Assembly: GCA_951406725.2 (NCBI GenBank) | Contig: OX597823.1 | Location: 29,636,001 to 29,700,000 of the forward strand | DNA: 64,000 bases | Direction of reading: 5' to 3' | Source of the DNA: Octopus vulgaris | Lineage: Eukaryota | In this document: one piece after another, positions 7,681 to 59,085 of the stretch | Layout of the letters: every line of letters starts with the position of its first letter | Position numbering within the stretch: position 1 is the first letter of the stretch | Position numbers and translations under genes: made by a program | The notes under the pieces: model-generated | The model's input: only the letters and a program-made list of their open reading frames with translations | Told to the model about the DNA's origin: nothing | The model's database searches: none

Positions 7681-8072
7681 GGCGGCAGAATCGTTAGCAC
7701 GTCGGGCGAAATGCCTAGCCGTATTTCGTCTGCCGATACATTCTGAGTTCAAATTCCGCCGAGGTCGACTTTGCCTTTAATCTTTTCGGGGTCGATAAAT
7801 TAAGTACCAGTTACGCCCTGGGGGTCGATGTAATCGACTTAATACCTATGTCTGTCCTTGTTTGTCCTCCCTGTGTTTAGCCCCTTGTGGGTAGTAAAGA
7901 AATAGGTATTTCGTCTGTCTTTATGTTCTGAGTTCAAATTCCACCGAGGTCGACTTTGCCTTTCACCCCTTTCGGGGTCGATAAATTAAGTACCAATTGC
8001 ATACTGGACTCGATCTAATCGACTGGCCCCCCTCCCCCAAAATGTCGGGCCTTGTGCCCAGAGTAGAAAAGA
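7681..8072 (+). mobile_element. SINE family B, dimeric
   Basis: Two ttctgagttcaaattcc.ccgaggtcgactttgcc units (7741 and 7926). Confidence 0.85.
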
Positions 8073-8329
8073 TTCTATCAACTGAAAGTGTTATGGCGAT
8101 AGAAGAGAAGCGGCGTTTTCAAACCTAACCAGTAGGAAGCACACAGTTACAAATAAGCAGGGAGACGGCACGAGCTTATCTTAATATTGTCGTTGTGCTT
8201 TCCCATGATAGGGATCAACTTTAGTGGAAATTCTTGTGACTAAGTACTCCTTTTTTAGGGAGAACACTTTTCACCCAAATTATTGGAAATGCGGAAGCAC
8301 AAAGAGAGCAATCATCTGTGAAGATGGAG

Positions 8330-8540
8330 CAATTATGTATGCATACGTACCTATGCAATACATAAAGACATGACTCAGTGGTTAGGGTATTCGGATCACA
8401 ATGAGAAATGAAAACATAAAAACAAAAACATCGAAAACGGACTTTTTTCGAACAACGAAAAAAAACCAAACAAACAGAGAAACGTGGCATGCAACATAAA
8501 GAATATTCCCCTTCATCAATTGTCCCTGTTTCATATATAC
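8330..8540 (-). mobile_element. Family R fragment
   Basis: cacaatgagaaatgaaaacataaaaacaaaaacat...gaatattccccttcatcaattgtccctgtttc matches 3046-3172. The core is mutated to UUGAUGA and the copy is truncated before the other HHR strands. Confidence 0.75.
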
Positions 8541-8877
8541 TGATCCCTTTCTGAGGCTGTTTTACACCAACGGAAGAAGCGGTCATTCCTTGAGAGTCGA
8601 AATCACTTTGCTATGCTTTAGGCAGCTGAAGAAGGTAATTCCAGTAATTTCACTGTTTATTGATATTTGCCAGCATATTTTATTTTCAGTTGTTTTTTGT
8701 TTTTTTTCTATTGTTCTGTTCAGCTTCGCAGTGATTATATCGGATCTTAGGTTATTACTGAGACGGATTCTAAGCGGGGTTTGTTATAGGATTAAAAAGT
8801 ACTTTATTTATACTGTCTGTAAACAATTGCACGGTCACATTGAATTAGCACCTGCAAGTATATTAACGCCTGTATAT

Positions 8878-8915
<38 letters not shown>

Positions 8916-9141
8916 GAAATATTAAAATAACTAAGTCTCTCTAAAAGAGAACAGCGGCAGCGTTCCCGGAAAATAATAGTTATCGCCATACTAATATGGC
9001 ATTCTTATAAAAATAAGAAAAAAGCTGTCCGCTTATTAGCTCCATGAGGCCATCGCCTTAAGCTAGCTATTTGATACACAAACTGTATCCATATAACCTT
9101 CGAACTAGGGAGGTCAGTCGCTCCACACTACTTGACCGGCA

Positions 9142-9183
9142 GCTACAGACGCGTTTCGGGGTATTGCCCCTTTTCAATGCAGC
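9142..9183 (-). ncRNA. Type I hammerhead ribozyme, U3-A8 core variant
   Basis: GCUGCA-UUGAAAA-GGGG caaua CCCC-GAAA-CGCG-UC-UGUAGC: 6-bp stem I, 4-bp stem II, palindromic stem III, GUC site. Confidence 0.85.
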
Positions 9184-9691
9184 GTAGCCAGCCAGTAGGT
9201 GTCGCTTCCGACAATCTCTGTTCGATGGTTTTATTTACCTAGTTTCGGTGGAATACATCCACTTGTTTTCAATAATAGAAATATTAAAATAACTAAGTCT
9301 CTCTAAAAGAGAACAGCGGCAGCGTTCCCGGAAAATAATAGTTATCGCCATACTAATATGGCATTCTTATAAAAATAAGAAAAAAGCTGTCCGCTTATTA
9401 GCTCCTTGTTCGAAGGTTATATGGATACAGTTTGTGTATCAAATAGCTAACTTAAGGCGATGGCCTCATGGAGCTAATAAGCGGACAGCTTTTTTCTTAT
9501 TTTTATAAGAATGCCATATTAGTATGGCGATAACTATTATTTTCCGGGAACGCTGCCGCTGTTCTCTTTTAGAGAGACTTAGTTATTTTAATATTTCTAT
9601 TATTGAAAACAAGTGGATGTATTCCACCGAAACTAGGTAAATAAAACCATCGAACAGAGATTGTCGGAAGCGACACCTACTGGCTGGCTAC

Positions 9692-9732
9692 GCTGCATTG
9701 AAAAGGGCAATACCCCGAAACGCGTCTGTAGC
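9692..9732 (+). ncRNA. Type I hammerhead ribozyme, U3-A8 core variant
   Basis: Same as 9142-9183, with one G fewer in stem II. Confidence 0.85.
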
Positions 9733-9898
9733 TGCCGGTCAAGTAGTGTGGAGCGACTGACCTCCCTTGTTCGAAGGTTATATGGATACAGTTTGTGTAT
9801 CAAATAGCTAACTTAAGGCGATGGCCTCATGGAGCTAATAAGCGGACAGCTTTTTTCTTATTTTTATAAGAATGCCATATTAGTATGGCGATAACTAT

Positions 9899-9935
<37 letters not shown>

Positions 9936-9937
<2 letters not shown>

Positions 9938-10963
9938 ACAATAGTATTAAGGAATGACCCTGACAGGTCGTTCAACTCACTTGAAAAGAGCAGCTAAACT
10001 CAAACCGCAAAAATAGTAGTAATTCTGAAACTAAAGGAGAAATAAAAACATTTATCCCCTTCAACTTTGTACCCTGCAAGGTTTCAACATTTTTATGTAA
10101 TCGAATTTAATTAAATTAAATTAAATCCGTTTACGATTGGCTTGTCTCATCAGCAAAGTCGCCAAAGAAAAGGAGAACATATACACACGAGGCAGCACCA
10201 CCGAAGCCTCGAGTTTATATATCCTAAATTTTCGAAATCCAGGGGATAAATGATTTTATTTCTCCTTTAGTTTCAGAATTACTACTATTTTTGCGGTTTG
10301 AGTTTAGCTGCTCTTTTCAAGTGAGTTGAACGACCTGTCAGGGTCATTCCTTAATACTATTGTTGAATATATTATATAGTCTGTGACTATTTCTATTTTC
10401 TCACTTGACCGCTGGTTGCAGAAAATGTTTCTTGAATTTTTCTTGAATTTCTTTGCTACCCTATATTGATTAATTAATGATTTTTTGACTAATTCTGAAA
10501 TTGTATCAGCAGTTTATATTTGCTGCTGAGTAGTTGGCGCGGTTACGGTGGATTTCGAAAATTTAGGATATATAAACTCGAGGCTTCGGTGGTGCTGCCT
10601 CGTGTGTATATGTTCTCCTTTTCTTTGGCGACTTTGCTTTTCTTTGGCGACAAGCCAATCGTAAACGGATTTAATTTAATTTAATTAAATTCGATTACGT
10701 AAAAATGTTGAAACCTTGCAGGGTACAAAGTTGAAGGGGATAAATGTTTTTATTTCTCCTTTAGTTTCAGAATTACTACTATTTTTGCGGTTTGAGTTTA
10801 GCTGCTCTTTTCAAGTGAGTATAACGACCTGTCAGGGTCATTCCTTAATACTATTGTTGAATATATTATATAGTCTGTGACTATTTCTATTTTCTCACTT
10901 GACCGCTGGTTCCAGAAAATTTTTCTTGAATTTTTCTTGAATTTTTTTGCTACCCTATATTGA

Positions 10964-10970
<7 letters not shown>
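9936..10970. mobile_element. HHR-bearing retrozyme/pLTR-like element; partial minus arm plus about 1.5 plus-strand monomers (period 494)
   Basis: aggggataaatg repeats at 10241 and 10735. 9936-10241 is the reverse complement of part of the monomer. (TA)n lies on both sides. Confidence 0.9.
10063..10160 (-). ncRNA. Type I hammerhead ribozyme with long stem II insert
   Basis: GACUUUG-CUGAUGA-GACA [about 53 nt, including AAUCG/CGAUU] UGUU-GAAA-CCU ugca GGG-UA-CAAAGUU. Confidence 0.85.
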
Positions 10971-11042
<72 letters not shown>

Positions 11043-11827
11043 TATATATATATATATATATATATTATGTATGTATATATATTATGTATGTATTATGTAT
11101 GTATGTATATATGTATGTATGTATTGTATGTCTGTATGTATGTATGTATGTATGTAATTATGACTGTATCTATATCTGTGTATACTTTACCATTTTATAT
11201 CTGCTATACTGGAAATTTCTCTAGTAACAGAACGAGTGTCTTTAAGAAACAAAATTCATTCAACAAAACAAAGTGGATCTACGCTGGCTTGTGATAAGAG
11301 GAGTTGTACGGTGTGTGTGTGTGTGTGTGTGTGTGATGGAGGTGGCGGTAATGATTTTATCGGTTATCAATAATTTTTCCCTACAGGAAGACATCTGTCA
11401 TTAATATTCTTTCCTATTAATTTTAAATAAATGTTTACATTTGCAATCAAACTTGTTTTCCACCAATCTAAGCAGGTTTTACGCACATATATAGAGTAAT
11501 TGGTTGCTGGAAGGACAAATGCGTTTTGTTCATTTTTTATAATTGACATCGACATTTCTCAAGTTTCTTAGACTGTTCAAGTGGATGAGGTCGTTAACTG
11601 ATGTGGTTTTTCCCAGATATTAACCTATATACTGTTATTGTATTCGCCTCAAATAGGTGATATTGTGTGAAGAGAGAGAGAGCAATATATTTCAAAAAAT
11701 TATAGCTTGTATTGAGGTAGAGAGCATTTAACATTGCTATGATTATCATCTGTTAGAAGTGAAACCGGTTTATAACAATGTATTTTGAAATAAGTTAATT
11801 ATAATACGTGATTTGTGTGGGATATTT

Positions 11828-12583: not shown

Positions 12584-12978
12584 GTGTACATTTAAACACA
12601 CAAGAGATGGCTATAATAGGACATCTGACCCGCTAGAAGGAGTAGTTAAACTCCAAACCACTATTAGAGGTAATTTCGAAAGTAAATGATTTTATTTGCT
12701 AAAAGATAGCTTGAAACCATGGTATAGGCAATAGAGGGTAAATGCTTTTATTTTTTATTCCCTTTCGAAATTACACCTAATAATGGTTTGGAGTTTAAAT
12801 ACTCTTTCTAAAGGGTCAGACGCCCTGTTATGGCCATCTCTTATGTGTTTAAATGTACACCGTATTTTTATATGAACAATATATAGTCTTTCGACTAGTT
12901 TTTTTCTTCTCGCTAGACCACTGGTAGCAAAGAAATTTTCTTAATTTTTTTTGCTACCCTGGAATTTATTAATAATGA
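12583..12978. mobile_element. Diverged pLTR-like element with inverted arms and an HHR 3' half
   Basis: 12583-12682 is inverted relative to 12762-12860. GAAA-CCAUGG-UA lies at 12713-12724. 12880-12978 resembles 10375-10480. Confidence 0.65.
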
Positions 12979-13327
12979 TATATATATATACTGTACTGTA
13001 CTGTTCCGTGATGGTAAGATCAACAAAAATGTAGTCGATCTGGTGAGAGATAAATATTAGTTAGTAAATACAACATATGTTTTCATGTACTACTATTAGT
13101 TTCAGGTGCTGAGAGCATGCCAGACACTATTTTTAACATGTTGGGTACCCTAGCACAGTCATCAAGCACTACTCACATGGCATAACGAACTAAAAATAGG
13201 ACGATAGGATAAGAACAAAAAGCAAAAGAGCAATTAACAGGGGAAACAACAGAAGTCAATTGGACATAAGCTGTGAATATATTAGATTTATGCTCAGGGA
13301 AAGTTTCAGATGGAAAAATAGGAGTAG

Positions 13328-14202: not shown

Positions 14203-14885
14203 GGGCGGTGAGCTGGCAGAATCGTTAGCACGTCGGGCGAAATGCTTGGCGGTTTTTCGTCTGCCGCTACGTTCTGAGTTCAAATTCCGCCGAGGTCGAC
14301 TTTGCCTTTCATCCTTTCGGGATCGATTAAATAGTACCAGTTACGCACTGGCGTCGATATAATCAACTTAATCCGTTTGTCTGTCTTTGTCCGTCCCCTC
14401 TGTGTTTAGTCTCTTGTGGGTAGTAAAGAAATAGGTATTTCGTTTGCCGCTACGTTCTGAGTTCAAATTCCGCCGTGGTCGACTTTGCTTTTCATCCTTT
14501 CGCGATCGATTAAATAGTACCAGTTACGCACTGGTGTCGATGTAATCAACTTAATCCGTTTGTCTGTCTTTGTCCGTCCCCTCTGTGTTTAGTCTCTTGT
14601 GGGTAGTAAAGAAATAGGTATTTCGTCTGCCGTTACGTTCTGAGTTCAAAATCCGCCGATGTCGATTTTGCTTTTCATCCTTTCGGGGTCGTTAAATTAA
14701 GTACCAGTTGCGTAGTGGGGTCGATCTCATCGACTGGCTCCCTCCCCCCAAATTCTGGGTTTGTGCCGAGTGTAGAAAAGAATAATTACCAGTTACGTAT
14801 TGGGGTCGATGTAATCGACTTAATCCCTTTGTCTGTCCTTGTCTGTCCCCACTATGTTTAGCCCCCTGTTAGCACTAAAGAAATA
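14203..14885 (+). mobile_element. SINE family B tandem multimer (183-bp period, 3 units plus an extra tail)
   Basis: ttctgagttcaaa at 14272, 14455 and 14638. Confidence 0.9.
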
Positions 14886-26800: not shown

Positions 26801-27019
26801 CCCACGTATTTAGCTCAATGCTTGCTATTTCTCCCTCTCTCAAAAACAAATACACAAATGCACTTATACTCAGAAATATACAGGGATTTAGCTTACACAC
26901 ACACATATACATTAACACACAAATGTATTTAATTCTACACACTCACATTCACATGTACAGACACTGACATACATGTACGCACTCATAGTCACATTTAGAC
27001 ATGTTGAATCGCTAGCTTC

Positions 27020-27197
27020 TGCACGCATTTTTTCTCTCCTTGTTTCTCTCCGTGTCTCTTTTCTGTGTATCTTTCTGTTGAAGAGCGTAGGCTCGAAACG
27101 TAAAAGACTTGTTTTATTTATATTCCTGAGCGCCATACAATTGATTGTTTGTACTCCACCTGCCTTCGTCTTTTGTTTATTTTCATAAAGCTTCCCG

Positions 27198-36099: not shown

Positions 36100-38112
36100 C
36101 TTATTACATTTCTGCCAATTCTTTTGTTTACAGCGTGGCAACGAATGAAGACCACAGATTTACAAAAGCAATGGCAGGCAGAGGAAGAGGAGAGTGGAAG
36201 GAACGGTGTGGGGTGGTTACAGTCTGTGGATTTGATCCCGGTTCATGTCGAGTGATACTTTTCGATATCAATTTTAAAATTTCCTTAGAAGCAGGGGAAG
36301 TGAAACGAACTGCAGTAAAAATGGAAGCCAGAGAAGAATTACAAATACAGCAAGGAATTTCTTTAATTCGTTTCTTGGAAAGGTCAAACAGATGCAAGCT
36401 TTACCACTTTGCAATAAGAAGAAATTGAAAGGCAATTTCCGGTAGGATACAAAGTACATGAGAAAGTAAATGAGATCTCTGGCAGAAAGTCAGATGCTCA
36501 AACTCCAGGTGTATCAGAGCAATGGATGGTACCATGCTGGTTGAGAAGATCGATATTTTGAATAGACGGACAGAGTATATAGAAGATTTATTTCATGATA
36601 CGAGAGCAGCCTCTCCTAGTTTTTCTGACTCTGATGAGTGACCAACGGTCATAGTAACTGAGGTGCATACAGCCATCAAAACGATAAAGAAATACAAAGC
36701 TTCTGGGCCAGACGGATTTCTCAAAGAGATGATAAAAGCATTAGAGGAATATGGAATTAGAAAACTGGCAGAAGTAACAAGTAAGATTTATGATGATAGG
36801 GAAATTTCCAGAAGATCTGAGTAAATCTATCTTTATTGCACTCCCGAAGAAATCAGGAGCGGTGGAGTGTGAGAAACATCGCACGATTAGTCTTATGAGT
36901 CGTTACAAAGATCTTTCTGCGGGTAAGAATAACACCTGAGAATGAAATTAAGCAGTTTGGCTTTATAAAGGGTGATGGTACTAATAATACTGTTTCTGTA
37001 TTGAGAATAACGGAGCGGGCGGTGGAGAAGCAAAGAGAGGTTTTCATGTATTTCATAGATTACACAAAGGTCATGACGTGTTATCTGAAAAACTCGGTAA
37101 CCATGATCTGCAAGGGGAATATCTCCAAATCTTGCAGAGTATGTACATAAATATGGATGGAGAATGCAATGAATACACTAGCATCAGGAAAGGTGTTAGA
37201 GAAGGATGTATTGTGTCGCCAGATCTCTTCAATTACCGTAGTGAATTGACCACAAGAGAACTGGAGAAGGAAAACGGTCTTAGGGTACGAGTCAGAAACA
37301 TCACAAACTTAAGACATGCAGATGGCACTGTCTCACTTGCAGAATCAGAAGAGAAAATCCAGAAACTTTTGGAAGTAGTGGTCAGAGAAAGCGACAGTAA
37401 GGGTCTGTGCATAGATTGTAAGAAGACAGACTGTATAGTGGGGACAAAGAAGGGAAGCCCAAAGTGCATGCCGAAAGAGAAGAATCAAATCATTAAGCAG
37501 GTATCACTCTTCAACCATTTTGGAATATTGATCACAGAAGACGCAAGATGTGTGGAAGAGATCAAAAGACGAATAGTGCTGGCAAAAGCTGCATTCTCAG
37601 AATTGTATAGCATTTTGAGAAACCCTACTTTGAGCATCAAGACCAAGATCCGTATATTGAATTGCTGTGTCAACTCTATGTTAATGCATAGAAGGGAAGG
37701 ATGGTCTGTAACATTAGAGCTTCAGAAATGTGAAGGTGCTTGGAGAGCAGGGAAGTGTGGTTCTTCTGGAGACTGTTGAGGATAACATGGGCAAAGTGTC
37801 TAATGAAGAAGCGATCACCTCGGCTGCGGTAAATGGGAAACTATTTCAGGAAATAAGGATCAGACAAATGAAATTTTTTGATCGTGTGATGAGGAAAGAC
37901 ACTCTGGAGAATTTAGCGATGACCGGAAAGACTGAAGGAAAAGAAGCAGAAGAAAGAGAAGGATGACACAGATGTCGCGTTTGATGAACTGGTTGGAAGA
38001 AAGAGACATTAAACATCAGGAAGTGGAACTGTTACAGAAAACAAAGAACAGAGAATTGTGGAAGGACATCAAAGCCTGTGTCCTACATTCTGGACATGGC
38101 ACCTGAAGGAAG
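36100..38112 (+). mobile_element. RTE-clade LINE, 5'-truncated and decayed
   Basis: ORF 37078-37779 has RT motifs KGVREGCIVSPDLFN, NLRHADGTV and EIKRRIVLAKAAF. Upstream KASGPDG and IALPKKSGAVECEKHRTISLMS motifs; stops and frameshifts throughout. Confidence 0.9.
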
Positions 38113-39947: not shown

Positions 39948-39951
<4 letters not shown>

Positions 39952-40336
39952 TATAGAAGGAGCTTCTACAGGACTAGAACTGTTTCATTCAGATGAAATC
40001 TTCAGGAAGCTGGCTGTCAAAATAAGTTCTGGTATTTATGCATTTAGGCAGATTTAATGGAGTGGTGGCGGGGGACGTTTTTTGGGTAGGTTGGTATTTA
40101 GGAGATAAACAGGGCACAAGCTATTGTTCTAAGGGGAGTGGTCAAAAGGCCAGAGTGTTTTTTTGAAATGAGAAGAATCAGTGAGAAAATAAATAAATGA
40201 ATAAATAGAATAAATGAATAGAAACAGATATATGGGATGGGATTTTAGGTAAATTAGAAGGCAATTGCTTTTTGGTGGTCAAGAAGAGGTAGGCAGTTAT
40301 TGTTAGGTGGAGGGAATAAATAGATAAATATACATG
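39948..40336 (-). mobile_element. pLTR-like HHR element, left arm of an inverted pair
   Basis: Near-perfect reverse complement of 41799-42190, with one 4-bp indel. Confidence 0.9.
39961..40011 (-). ncRNA. Type I hammerhead ribozyme
   Basis: Identical to 42127-42177. Confidence 0.8.
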
Positions 40337-40543
40337 AAATAACATATAAAATAAATATACATACAAACACACTTACATACACATGCGAATATACATATGT
40401 ATACATACATACGCACATATATATACACACATACACATACATACATATATGTATGTATGTGTTTATATATGCATAATTATGTATATGTTTATATGTACGT
40501 AGGTATATTTATGTATGTATACTTATGTGTATTTGTATGTGTA

Positions 40544-41655
40544 ACTTAGAATAACTTAGAAAAGTTTTTGGCCAGTATTGGCCCAGGCCATGTCTAACTT
40601 AATAGCACCACCTGGCGAAGTCTTTCAGTTCAGGATTTGGGCACCAAGGCCCATTCGAGCAGAAAGTTATTGTTTGCGGAGACATATCCGGGTGTGGGTG
40701 GTTTGTCCGGTACTGTTTGAAGGAATTTGTCCAAAGACTTCTTGAATTTTGTGTGGTCAGTTTCTTTTTTGACGTGTCCTGGTGTAATGTTGAAGAGAGC
40801 GGGTCCAATTGAGGTGAAATAGTTGTGCCGTATTGTCGTTATGTGATGCGATTTAGATTTTTGTTGTGGACGGATGGCACGTGGTCCAAGCCTTGGATGC
40901 ATTTTGAAGGTGATGCCAACATCATTCGGACAGTGCTGATGGAATATTTTCCACATCATACAGATAATGTAGCGTTCACGGCGTCGTTGGAGTGAATACA
41001 ATTTCAGCTTCTCTAGTCTACCCCAGTAGTCAAGGTCTGACATGCCATCTATCTTTTTTGTGATTGACCTTTGGGGAGCTTCAATTCTCATAATATTTTG
41101 TTTTGTGTAGGGAGACCACAGTGGACAGCAGTATTCAAGGTGGGGTCGGGCAAAAGTGGAGAAGAGAAGGATAATAGCGTGGGAATCTCTCGACTGGAAG
41201 GTTCTGAGAATCCAGGAACACATTCTGCGGGCCATGTCAACTTTGCTGCTTATATGTGTAGCCCAGCTTATGTTGTTGTCCACTGTTACTCCCAGGTCTC
41301 TGATGTTGTTGGATGCCATGAGAATTTCTCCAGAAGGAAGAGAGTATGGGAGTTTCAGAGCGTCCTCCCTTCCAAAGTGGATCAGTTCGAATTTGTCTTC
41401 ATTTAGCAACATGTTATTCTTTTCCGCCCATTGGACAACAGCCAGTAGGTCTGACTGAAGGTTTATTCGGTCATCCACGCCATTGATGACCTTCTGGAGC
41501 TTGGAATCATCAGCGAAGGTTCTGATGTTGCTGTGTTTGATGGTGTCAGTAATATCATTTATGTAGATGATGAAGAGAAGTGGGCCCAACACAGTGCCTT
41601 GTGGGACACCACTGCTGACTTTGGCTGGGCTGGATTTGACTCCTTCGACTACAAC
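40544..41655 (-). mobile_element. CR1-like LINE, 5'-truncated, young
   Basis: Uninterrupted RT C-terminal frame, short 3' UTR and (tctaagtta)-type tail repeats at 40544-40560. Confidence 0.9.
40630..41652 (-). CDS. Reverse transcriptase ORF2 fragment of the CR1-like LINE (no native start)
   Basis: SGVPQGTVLGPLLFIIYIND...FADDSK...RDLGV...RPHLEYCCPLWSP...LKLYSLQRRRER. Confidence 0.9.
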   Translation of the reverse strand, partial: VVEGVKSSPAKVSSGVPQGTVLGPLLFIIYINDITDTIKHSNIRTFADDSKLQKVINGVDDRINLQSDLLAVVQWAEKNNMLLNEDKFELIHFGREDALKLPYSLPSGEILMASNNIRDLGVTVDNNISWATHISSKVDMARRMCSWILRTFQSRDSHAIILLFSTFARPHLEYCCPLWSPYTKQNIMRIEAPQRSITKKIDGMSDLDYWGRLEKLKLYSLQRRRERYIICMMWKIFHQHCPNDVGITFKMHPRLGPRAIRPQQKSKSHHITTIRHNYFTSIGPALFNITPGHVKKETDHTKFKKSLDKFLQTVPDKPPTPGYVSANNNFLLEWALVPKS

Positions 41656-41716
41656 ATATATATATGTATATATATATGTGCGTGTGTGTGTGTATGTAGG
41701 TGTATGTATGTATATG

Positions 41717-41775
<59 letters not shown>

Positions 41776-41798
41776 ATGTATATATGTATATATGTATA

Positions 41799-42259
41799 CA
41801 TGTATATTTATCTATTTATTCCCTCCACCTAACAATAACAAACTGCCTACCTCTTCTTGACCACCAAAAAGCAATTGCCTTCTAATTTACCTAAAATCCC
41901 ATCCCATATATCTGTTTCTATTCATTTATTCTATTTATTCATTTATTTATTTTCTCACTGATTCTTCTCATTTCAAAAAACACTCTGGCCTTTTGACCAC
42001 TCCCCTTAGAACAATAGCTTGTGCCCTGTTTATCTCCTAAATACCAACCTACCCAAAAAACGTCCCCCGCCACCACTCCATTAAATCTGCCTAAATGCAT
42101 AAATACCAGAACTTATTTTGACAGCCAGCTTCCTGAAGATTTCATCTGAATGAAACAGTTCTAGTCCTGTAGAAGCTCCTTCTATAAAATAAATTACTTT
42201 ACTCTGCTATGTATTGAGTACCTTATTTACTGTGGTTAACCCCGACTCAACCCGGGACC
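41799..42259 (+). mobile_element. pLTR-like HHR element, right arm
   Basis: See 39948-40336. This arm extends about 70 nt further and ends at (TA)n. Confidence 0.9.
42127..42177 (+). ncRNA. Type I hammerhead ribozyme
   Basis: AGCUUC-CUGAAGA-U UUCA uc UGAA U-GAAA-CAG uucuaguc CUG-UA-GAAGCU. Atypical U-U at the base of stem II. Confidence 0.8.
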
Positions 42260-55595: not shown

Positions 55596-55792
55596 ATAAC
55601 GGGAAGCTTTATGAAAATAAACAAAAGACGAAGGCAGGTGGAATACAAACAAACAATTGTATTAGTATGGCGCTCAGGAATATAAATAAAACAAGTCTTT
55701 TATGTTTCGAGCCTACGCTCTTCAACAGAAAGATACACAGAAAAGAAACACGGAGAGAAACACGGAGAGAAACAAGGAGAGAAAAAAAAATG
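55596..55792 (-). mobile_element. pLTR-like fragment with CUGUUGA hammerhead (55697-55732)
   Basis: Reverse copy of 27020-27200; stem III is mutated from CG to CA. Confidence 0.8.
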
Positions 55793-55981
55793 CGAATCAA
55801 CATGGCGATACATATATATATATACACATATAAGAAGGGACGACCACTAAGTGGACATCCTTATGCTGGAAGTCGACCCCATATGGTCTTACTTCTAAGA
55901 AAGGAATGTTCTCAAAAACATTTAGCAAACGCCATAACGTAAGCGAGCAAGACAAATGAAAAGATACAAAATATACAGATT

Positions 55982-56037
55982 AATCACAAACCGGTTTCGT
56001 TGTTACCACTTACGTTACGCAACTCGTCAGTGTGATC
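55982..56037 (-). ncRNA. Type I hammerhead ribozyme
   Basis: GAUCACA-CUGACGA-GUUG [17 nt] CAAC-GAAA-CCGG-UU-UGUGAUU, within a pLTR-like segment at about 55831-56050. Confidence 0.85.
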
Positions 56038-56088
56038 GTCATAGCAAAATGTGTGTATGCATACACACACACACACACACACACACAT

Positions 56089-58301: not shown

Positions 58302-59085
<784 letters not shown>

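Follow-up and report, generated by a model that had tools for sequence, protein, structure and literature searches.

A young head-to-head pair of hammerhead-bearing repeats in an (AT)n microsatellite of Octopus vulgaris, probably inserted in the manner of a Penelope-like element

Results

In the window, a 64-kb stretch of Octopus vulgaris DNA (contig OX597823.1, positions 29,636,001 to 29,700,000) to which all coordinates below refer, an element at 8910-9902 is enclosed by alternating AT sequence. The left (AT)n tract (8880..8912) comprises 16.5 units and represents half of the inferred target microsatellite, and the right (TA)n tract (9902..9935) comprises 17 units and doubles as the left flank of a neighbouring element. 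Two arms of the same repeat unit lie between these tracts in opposite orientation. Arm A (8910..9405) has its RNA sense on the minus strand and holds 1.37 units of 362 nt, and arm B (9404..9902) reads on the plus strand and holds 1.38 units of 361 nt, close to the 1.4 monomers per arm estimated in an initial annotation of this DNA. The arms are joined 5' to 5' at 9402..9408, where the short CC/CTCC microhomology noticed previously consists of an exact CC overlap (9404-9405) and an imperfect overlap to 9408; CTCC is common to both arms with a one-base slip, and the match of arm A extends to 9408 with one mismatch. The 5' ends face inward with this 2-7-nt overlap, and the 3' ends of both arms face outward and merge into (AT)n. 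The arms are nearly equal in length (496 and 499 nt), as are the flanking AT tracts (33 and 34 nt), possibly by chance or through a duplicated target tract.

The 362-nt unit has a GC content of 41.6% and folds far more stably than its shuffled versions, with z-scores of -6.5 for the linear form (0 of 100 shuffles as good) and -6.3 for the circular form (40 shuffles). The longest ORF beginning with Met in a unit dimer is 38 aa, which bears out the absence of coding capacity stated initially. An ORF of an autonomous Penelope-like element (PLE), combining RT and GIY-YIG, was not found in the element, and a tRNA gene search of 8000-11500 returned none. In the window as a whole, the GIY-YIG family was matched by none of the 144 reading frames scanned (the 150 longest of 255 candidates, minus six that were repetitive or antisense to a known ORF), and two RVT_1 matches exceeded the cut-off.

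Segments duplicated within an arm are identical, as had been proposed: 8910-9043 and 9272-9405 in arm A agree over 134 nt, and 9404-9541 and 9765-9902 in arm B over 138 nt, with no differences in either case. The arms had been thought to differ from each other at about three sites, and the count is exactly three, namely 9106, 9063, and an extra G at 9170. All three sit in segments that occur only once, and none is a private allele carried by both duplicated copies.

Each arm carries one hammerhead motif, found with a type I descriptor permitting either C3-G8 or U3-A8, and the predicted cut falls where it was first placed. The motif of arm A (9142..9183, minus strand, predicted cut after 9148) is an intact U3-A8 variant with a 6-bp stem I, a UUGAAAA core, a 4-bp stem II, GAAA, the palindrome ACGCGU, and C17. 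In the motif of arm B (9692..9732, plus strand, predicted cut after 9726), stem II is one G short (3 bp); the four-G stem II is commoner in three of the four public runs compared (X10, X9, and X16). When the unit was shuffled with dinucleotides preserved, 0 of 5000 sequences matched the strict descriptor and 3 of 5000 the relaxed one. The minimum-energy fold of the hammerhead monomer mispairs the core, and two motifs folded together take as their minimum-energy structure a double hammerhead in which stem III is intermolecular and 6 bp long (-34.7 kcal/mol). All parts of a type I hammerhead are present, in the known U3-A8 variant, and the motif is predicted to fold as a dimer. The U3-A8 pair is described as a natural covariant that is active in vitro (PMC3088659), and hammerheads containing it are described from PLEs (PMC4209133). 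Since each arm has a single hammerhead, the locus itself is incapable of releasing a unit-length monomer by double self-cleavage. Three contigs of run X3 form a diverged group in which N7 is changed, the palindrome is kept (as ACAUGU), and stem II is degraded.

A U3-A8 hammerhead family of this size escapes Rfam: the whole window gave no match at the gathering threshold, and 8800-11100 gave 20 sub-threshold matches at E<=10, none of them to a ribozyme, which were treated as chance. A broken or unusual hammerhead, with a core read from CUG and 12 nt long, was considered and dropped, as the U3-A8 register gives canonical stems. A second hammerhead-like stretch at 9603-9645 failed the descriptor.

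The arm ends never coincide with the predicted hammerhead cuts, as the initial annotation had stated. Arm A runs from the central junction (5' end, unit position 9470) to the second of two CTATTAT sites (3' end, unit position 9603), and the 3' end of arm B is at the first (unit position 9540-9541). The sense strand of the unit contains CTATTAT at exactly two places (9534-9540 and 9597-9603, plus strand) and each arm stops at one of them, so that the two 3' ends are 62-63 nt apart and arm A carries a one-sided tail of that length; the sites are candidate start sites of reverse transcription. The arms had been described as phase-shifted. They do end at different points of the unit, but their phases are not arbitrary, as the 3' ends fall on only these two sites. 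What looked like a 3' phase shift amounts to a tail of 62-63 nt, present on one side only and bounded by two set ends, and it is the 5' ends that vary.

A single unit (9404-9764) was compared with public contigs from four of 24 listed runs, of which X10 and X3 are DNA-type and X9 is only guessed to be RNA. Matching contigs numbered 2499 in X10, 1745 in X3, 1 in X9, and 54 in X16. Among the matches listed, 17 contigs from X10 and 3 from X16 have a loose end running into (AT)n at 9603, and one from X3 has such an end at 9542. Opposite-strand joints were located elsewhere, at 9496/9706 (X3) and 9497/9567 (X16), in one contig each among the matches listed, and the central junction of the present locus was absent among the joints listed for the four runs. 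The head-to-tail joint 9764->9404 was found in all four runs, with 8 and 10 contigs in the two DNA-type runs; in X16 it was seen in one contig of depth 6.83, with no obvious enrichment over the DNA runs. No position at which many molecules start or stop was listed, although ends of molecules are not visible in contigs. Words of the unit were present at 0.87-0.93 in 20 of the 24 listed runs, which represent 10 studies and 7 organism labels and include four very small runs (5-6 million letters). This wide occurrence fits a high-copy repeat common to related species. No RNA run stood among those listed with these words, which says nothing about expression. Pattern scans of metagenome contigs, viral contigs, and prokaryotic genomes returned no match.

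The type I descriptor located six hammerhead sites from four families in the window, and at least three of the hammerhead families have the same layout, namely the present one and two others, whose tails are 111 and 70 nt. The nearest is a neighbouring, unrelated element at 9936..10968, which is built from a 494-nt unit, of which its arms hold about 0.6 and 1.47 copies, and has (TA)n on both sides. Its arms are joined 5' to 5' near 10241, its 3' ends are 111 nt apart, and a canonical CUGAUGA hammerhead is present at 10153-10070 on the minus strand; in the plus-strand copy, a short local duplication near 10620-10640 has replaced the hammerhead core. With 6 differences in 236 nt, compared with 3 in 993 nt, this element is older than that at 8910-9902, for which the same figures agree with the very young insertion proposed at the outset. 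An old relative of the 494-nt unit (68-73% identity) lies between (TA)n tracts at 12733-12979, apparently with a short inverted part.

A third inverted pair has arms of about 500 nt on opposite strands (39950-40445 and 41691-42259), with outward 3' ends that run into (AT)n and a 70-nt one-sided tail. It contains CUGAAGA hammerhead-like motifs with weaker stems at 40005-39967 (minus strand) and 42133-42171 (plus strand). The pair encloses a LINE-type RT fragment (40633-41811, RVT_1), which either came in later as a LINE insertion or was carried along as part of the sequence between the arms. A single-armed repeat at 55600-56050 has a canonical type I hammerhead (56030-55989, minus strand) with a palindromic stem III and microsatellites on both sides, and part of it recurs at 27000-27197 (89%). 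Another inverted pair, at 58302-59085 (173 and 125 nt, 87-91%), has no hammerhead match to the descriptor. Words of 11-13 nt common to the hammerhead families were taken as chance.

Discussion

In our judgement the element at 8910-9902 is probably a young copy of a high-copy, non-coding, retrozyme-type repeat that entered an (AT)n microsatellite by a PLE-style double insertion of two target-primed cDNAs. The retrozyme-type, hammerhead-bearing, non-coding nature of the unit proposed initially is borne out by its static features (size, GC content, self-pairing, and predicted motif), and the proposal of two reverse-transcribed copies is likewise supported. The repeat was likely inserted by the protein of an autonomous PLE. 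The outward-facing 3' ends suggest two nicks that primed two cDNAs joined by microhomology. On this view the first-strand cDNAs would be the top strand in arm A and the bottom strand in arm B, both of which run on into a flank.

In such an insertion, the RT-endonuclease of a PLE would nick both strands of (TA)n, and cDNA synthesis on the repeat RNA would be primed by each 3'-OH from one of two fixed internal positions. Pairing of TAT may help this priming, and a 62-63-nt tail would thereby be left on one side only. Each cDNA would then run for about 500 nt, across the hammerhead cut site and beyond one unit, before the cDNA 3' ends annealed by microhomology and repair filled in the remainder. 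According to Craig et al. 2021, PLE insertions are typically partial tandems with an inverted 5'-truncated copy alongside and a tail at one end, and they show a bias towards (TA)n (PMC8557442). At the present locus we find a partial tandem with an adjacent inverted 5'-truncated copy, a (TA)n microsatellite target, and a tail arising from two fixed 3' ends, of which the 9603 end recurs in two of the four public runs and the 9542 end once among the matches listed. In vitro, Frangieh et al. 2024 show that a PLE protein nicks and extends both strands, begins synthesis at two positions within the RNA by which the tail is defined, and does not depend on hammerhead cleavage (PMC11167929). Li et al. 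2026 relate animal retrozymes to PLE terminal repeats (bioRxiv 10.64898/2026.07.22.740005). On the other side, no autonomous partner turned up in the 144 frames scanned, and the (TA)n-targeting clade reported in Octopus, Naiads, is described as lacking canonical hammerheads (PMC8557442). We count both against the PLE reading, together with the tail length and the TAT at the start sites (see below), the near-equal arm lengths, and the absence of the central junction among the joints listed for the public runs.

The unit resembles the non-LTR retrozymes of animals, including the 350-390-nt repeats of Mytilus (Cervera & de la Pena 2020, PMC7229834), in being a non-coding, strongly self-paired repeat of 362 nt with a head-to-tail joint and a type I hammerhead of 6-bp stem I, 4-bp stem II, and palindromic stem III. 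It falls within the ranges used to recognize animal retrozymes (150-450 nt, GC under 50%, self-paired, head-to-tail). PLE mobilisation and circle-templated tandem cDNA have already been proposed for that group (PMC7229834; bioRxiv 10.64898/2026.07.22.740005). Unlike the animal retrozymes described there, the core is U3-A8 rather than C3-G8, and circles are a tentative proposal for the present family. The "active" retrozymes of Li et al. 2026 are defined by at least two consecutive hammerhead-bearing units on one strand; with one hammerhead per 1.4-unit arm, the present locus does not qualify. The head-to-head arrangement and the microsatellite target are not among the features given for animal retrozymes in the available text of these sources.

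The partial tandem, inverted 5'-truncated copy, one-end tail, (TA)n, and two internal starts are shared with PLEs as described in PMC8557442 and PMC11167929, and non-autonomous, tandem-forming PLE derivatives are described there from Chlamys. The present element differs from PLEs in having no ORF and a tail of 62-63 nt, compared with the 30-40 bp given in PMC8557442. Its start sites share TAT with the target, whereas the RNA start site of the PLE studied in vitro is described as not homologous to its target (PMC11167929). The hammerhead variants of PLEs (Cervera & de la Pena 2014, PMC4209133) offer a further parallel, as the available account includes the U3-A8 covariant, dimeric activation, and a model leading from a circle to copies of more than one unit. 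Paired hammerheads on opposite strands are given there as 100-700 bp apart, and the present pair is separated by about 520 bp. The stems here have canonical lengths, unlike the minimal PLE form with its long stem II and extra unpaired base, and the host group differs from those of the PLE hammerheads in that account.

Twin priming is well known from L1, where it yields head-to-head geometry with a microhomology junction. Here, one multimeric linear RNA would be primed at CTATTAT and an opposite nick would prime farther upstream on the same molecule, which would also result in the observed geometry and junction. However, the arms overlap across the whole unit, and by coordinate arithmetic a single RNA could serve for both only if it held three units or more and if some 160 or 290 nt were left uncopied from where the first cDNA stopped to the second start site. 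We consider this route quite unlikely. Far less credence is due to an origin at the DNA level with no RNA step, as a fold-back element or satellite rearrangement (a non-autonomous DNA transposon or an inversion within a tandem array). Long inverted arms would be expected from such events and a TA duplication could hide in the TA-rich flanks, but the outer ends are different points of the unit, hence there is no terminal inverted repeat, and in three unrelated families both outer ends are 3' ends relative to the hammerhead. An artefact of assembly or of a fold-back read is just as improbable. Structures of this type are described as troublesome for short-read assemblies (PMC8557442), and the locus-specific junction is not among the joints listed for the public runs. 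Nevertheless, the mirror symmetry does not extend into the outer flanks, three sites distinguish the arms, each arm stops at a different natural site, and public contigs contain other inversion joints of the family.

Under the PLE-style double insertion that we favour, the template must have been unbroken at the cut site and must have exceeded one unit in length. Both cDNAs pass the cut site and are more than a unit long, which rules out the cleaved linear monomer alone. An uncleaved multimeric transcript has close to an even chance of having been the template, a ligated circle fits as well and has a slightly lower chance, and jumping between monomers is unlikely. The initial annotation regarded the layout as the footprint of a circular RNA template. 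We do not find support for it in this form, as the 3' ends lie on two CTATTAT sites, one of which recurs as an (AT)n junction in public contigs, the head-to-tail joint occurs in both DNA-type runs, the layout is a pattern described for PLEs (PMC8557442), and a PLE protein is described as starting at two internal sites of unprocessed linear RNA in vitro (PMC11167929). The layout alone is no proof of a circular RNA template.

In the circular case, which we hold at somewhat under an even chance, the templates would be covalently closed 362-nt circles, formed when dimeric hammerheads cleaved and ligated the RNA, and reverse transcription would have gone round them 1.4 times, possibly on two different molecules. 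In its favour, both cDNAs span the cut site and each is longer than one unit, and the size, the GC content of 41.6%, and the strong self-pairing match those reported for circle-forming animal retrozymes (PMC7229834). Run X9, guessed to be RNA, contributes one contig, 392 nt long (362 + 30 nt), that passes through the 9764->9404 joint; this would be the form expected of a closed cycle, although contigs cannot show circles. At 9493 and 9584, where X10 and X3 taken together favour another letter by depth, the contig has the letters of the present subfamily. However, a tandem linear template yields the same cycle, and the joint is also found in both DNA-type runs. X9 bears another organism label, the contig has a depth of 6.86, and two runs of the same study have no unit words. 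Unprocessed RNA is described as the dominant substrate of the PLE protein in vitro (PMC11167929), and no private allele is duplicated within an arm.

The X9 contig equals arm B plus the fourth G; compared with it, arm A has two private differences and arm B has one. That all differences sit in once-only segments has a probability of 0.245 if they were borne by the templates and 0.094 if they arose after insertion, a likelihood ratio of about 2.6 in favour of template-borne differences. The proposal of two slightly different circular RNAs is at most weakly favoured, and with a ratio too small to decide it stands unsupported. Circular templates for PLE-type copies of more than one unit have already been proposed (PMC4209133, PMC7229834), and since the model dates from 2014 (PMC4209133) it would not be new in kind even if right.

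More speculatively, the family may be active as 362-nt circular RNAs, processed by a U3-A8 dimeric hammerhead and copied by a PLE protein from both (TA)n nicks at two UAUUAU sites, a reading that we regard as doubtful. If it were true, each insertion would record an act of rolling reverse transcription, and the family would make it possible for the first time to test directly, in a genome, the circle-template model of the tandem and inverted structure of PLE insertions. Such a test would draw on thousands of young copies and on several parallel families in one genome. The mechanism of tandem and inverted PLE insertion, and whether retrozyme circles are real templates, are open questions in the available text of PMC8557442 and PMC7229834. 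The present locus leaves the template questions unsettled, while offering a clean, very young example from a high-copy family with defined start sites. With at least three hammerhead families of the same layout in 64 kb, a genome-wide count could distinguish a circle from a multimer.

We did not find the family in print. Among the papers listed on octopus hammerhead ribozymes, no title or abstract describes such a family, and nothing was found in literature combining the mechanism terms. The word "ribozyme" does not appear in the text of a paper on Octopus vulgaris repeats (PMC13282606), and neither "hammerhead" nor "retrozyme" appears in the single supplement to that paper. The supplements of PMC7229834 and of the 2026 preprint could list a cephalopod family.

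Other repeats of the window include tandem SINE-like units of 183-186 bp at 14251-14725 and 7721-8007. The 183-bp unit at 14251 presumably belongs with the octopus-type units that it resembles. A second RT fragment is present at 36988-37776 (RVT_1 above the cut-off), which we take to be RTE-like.
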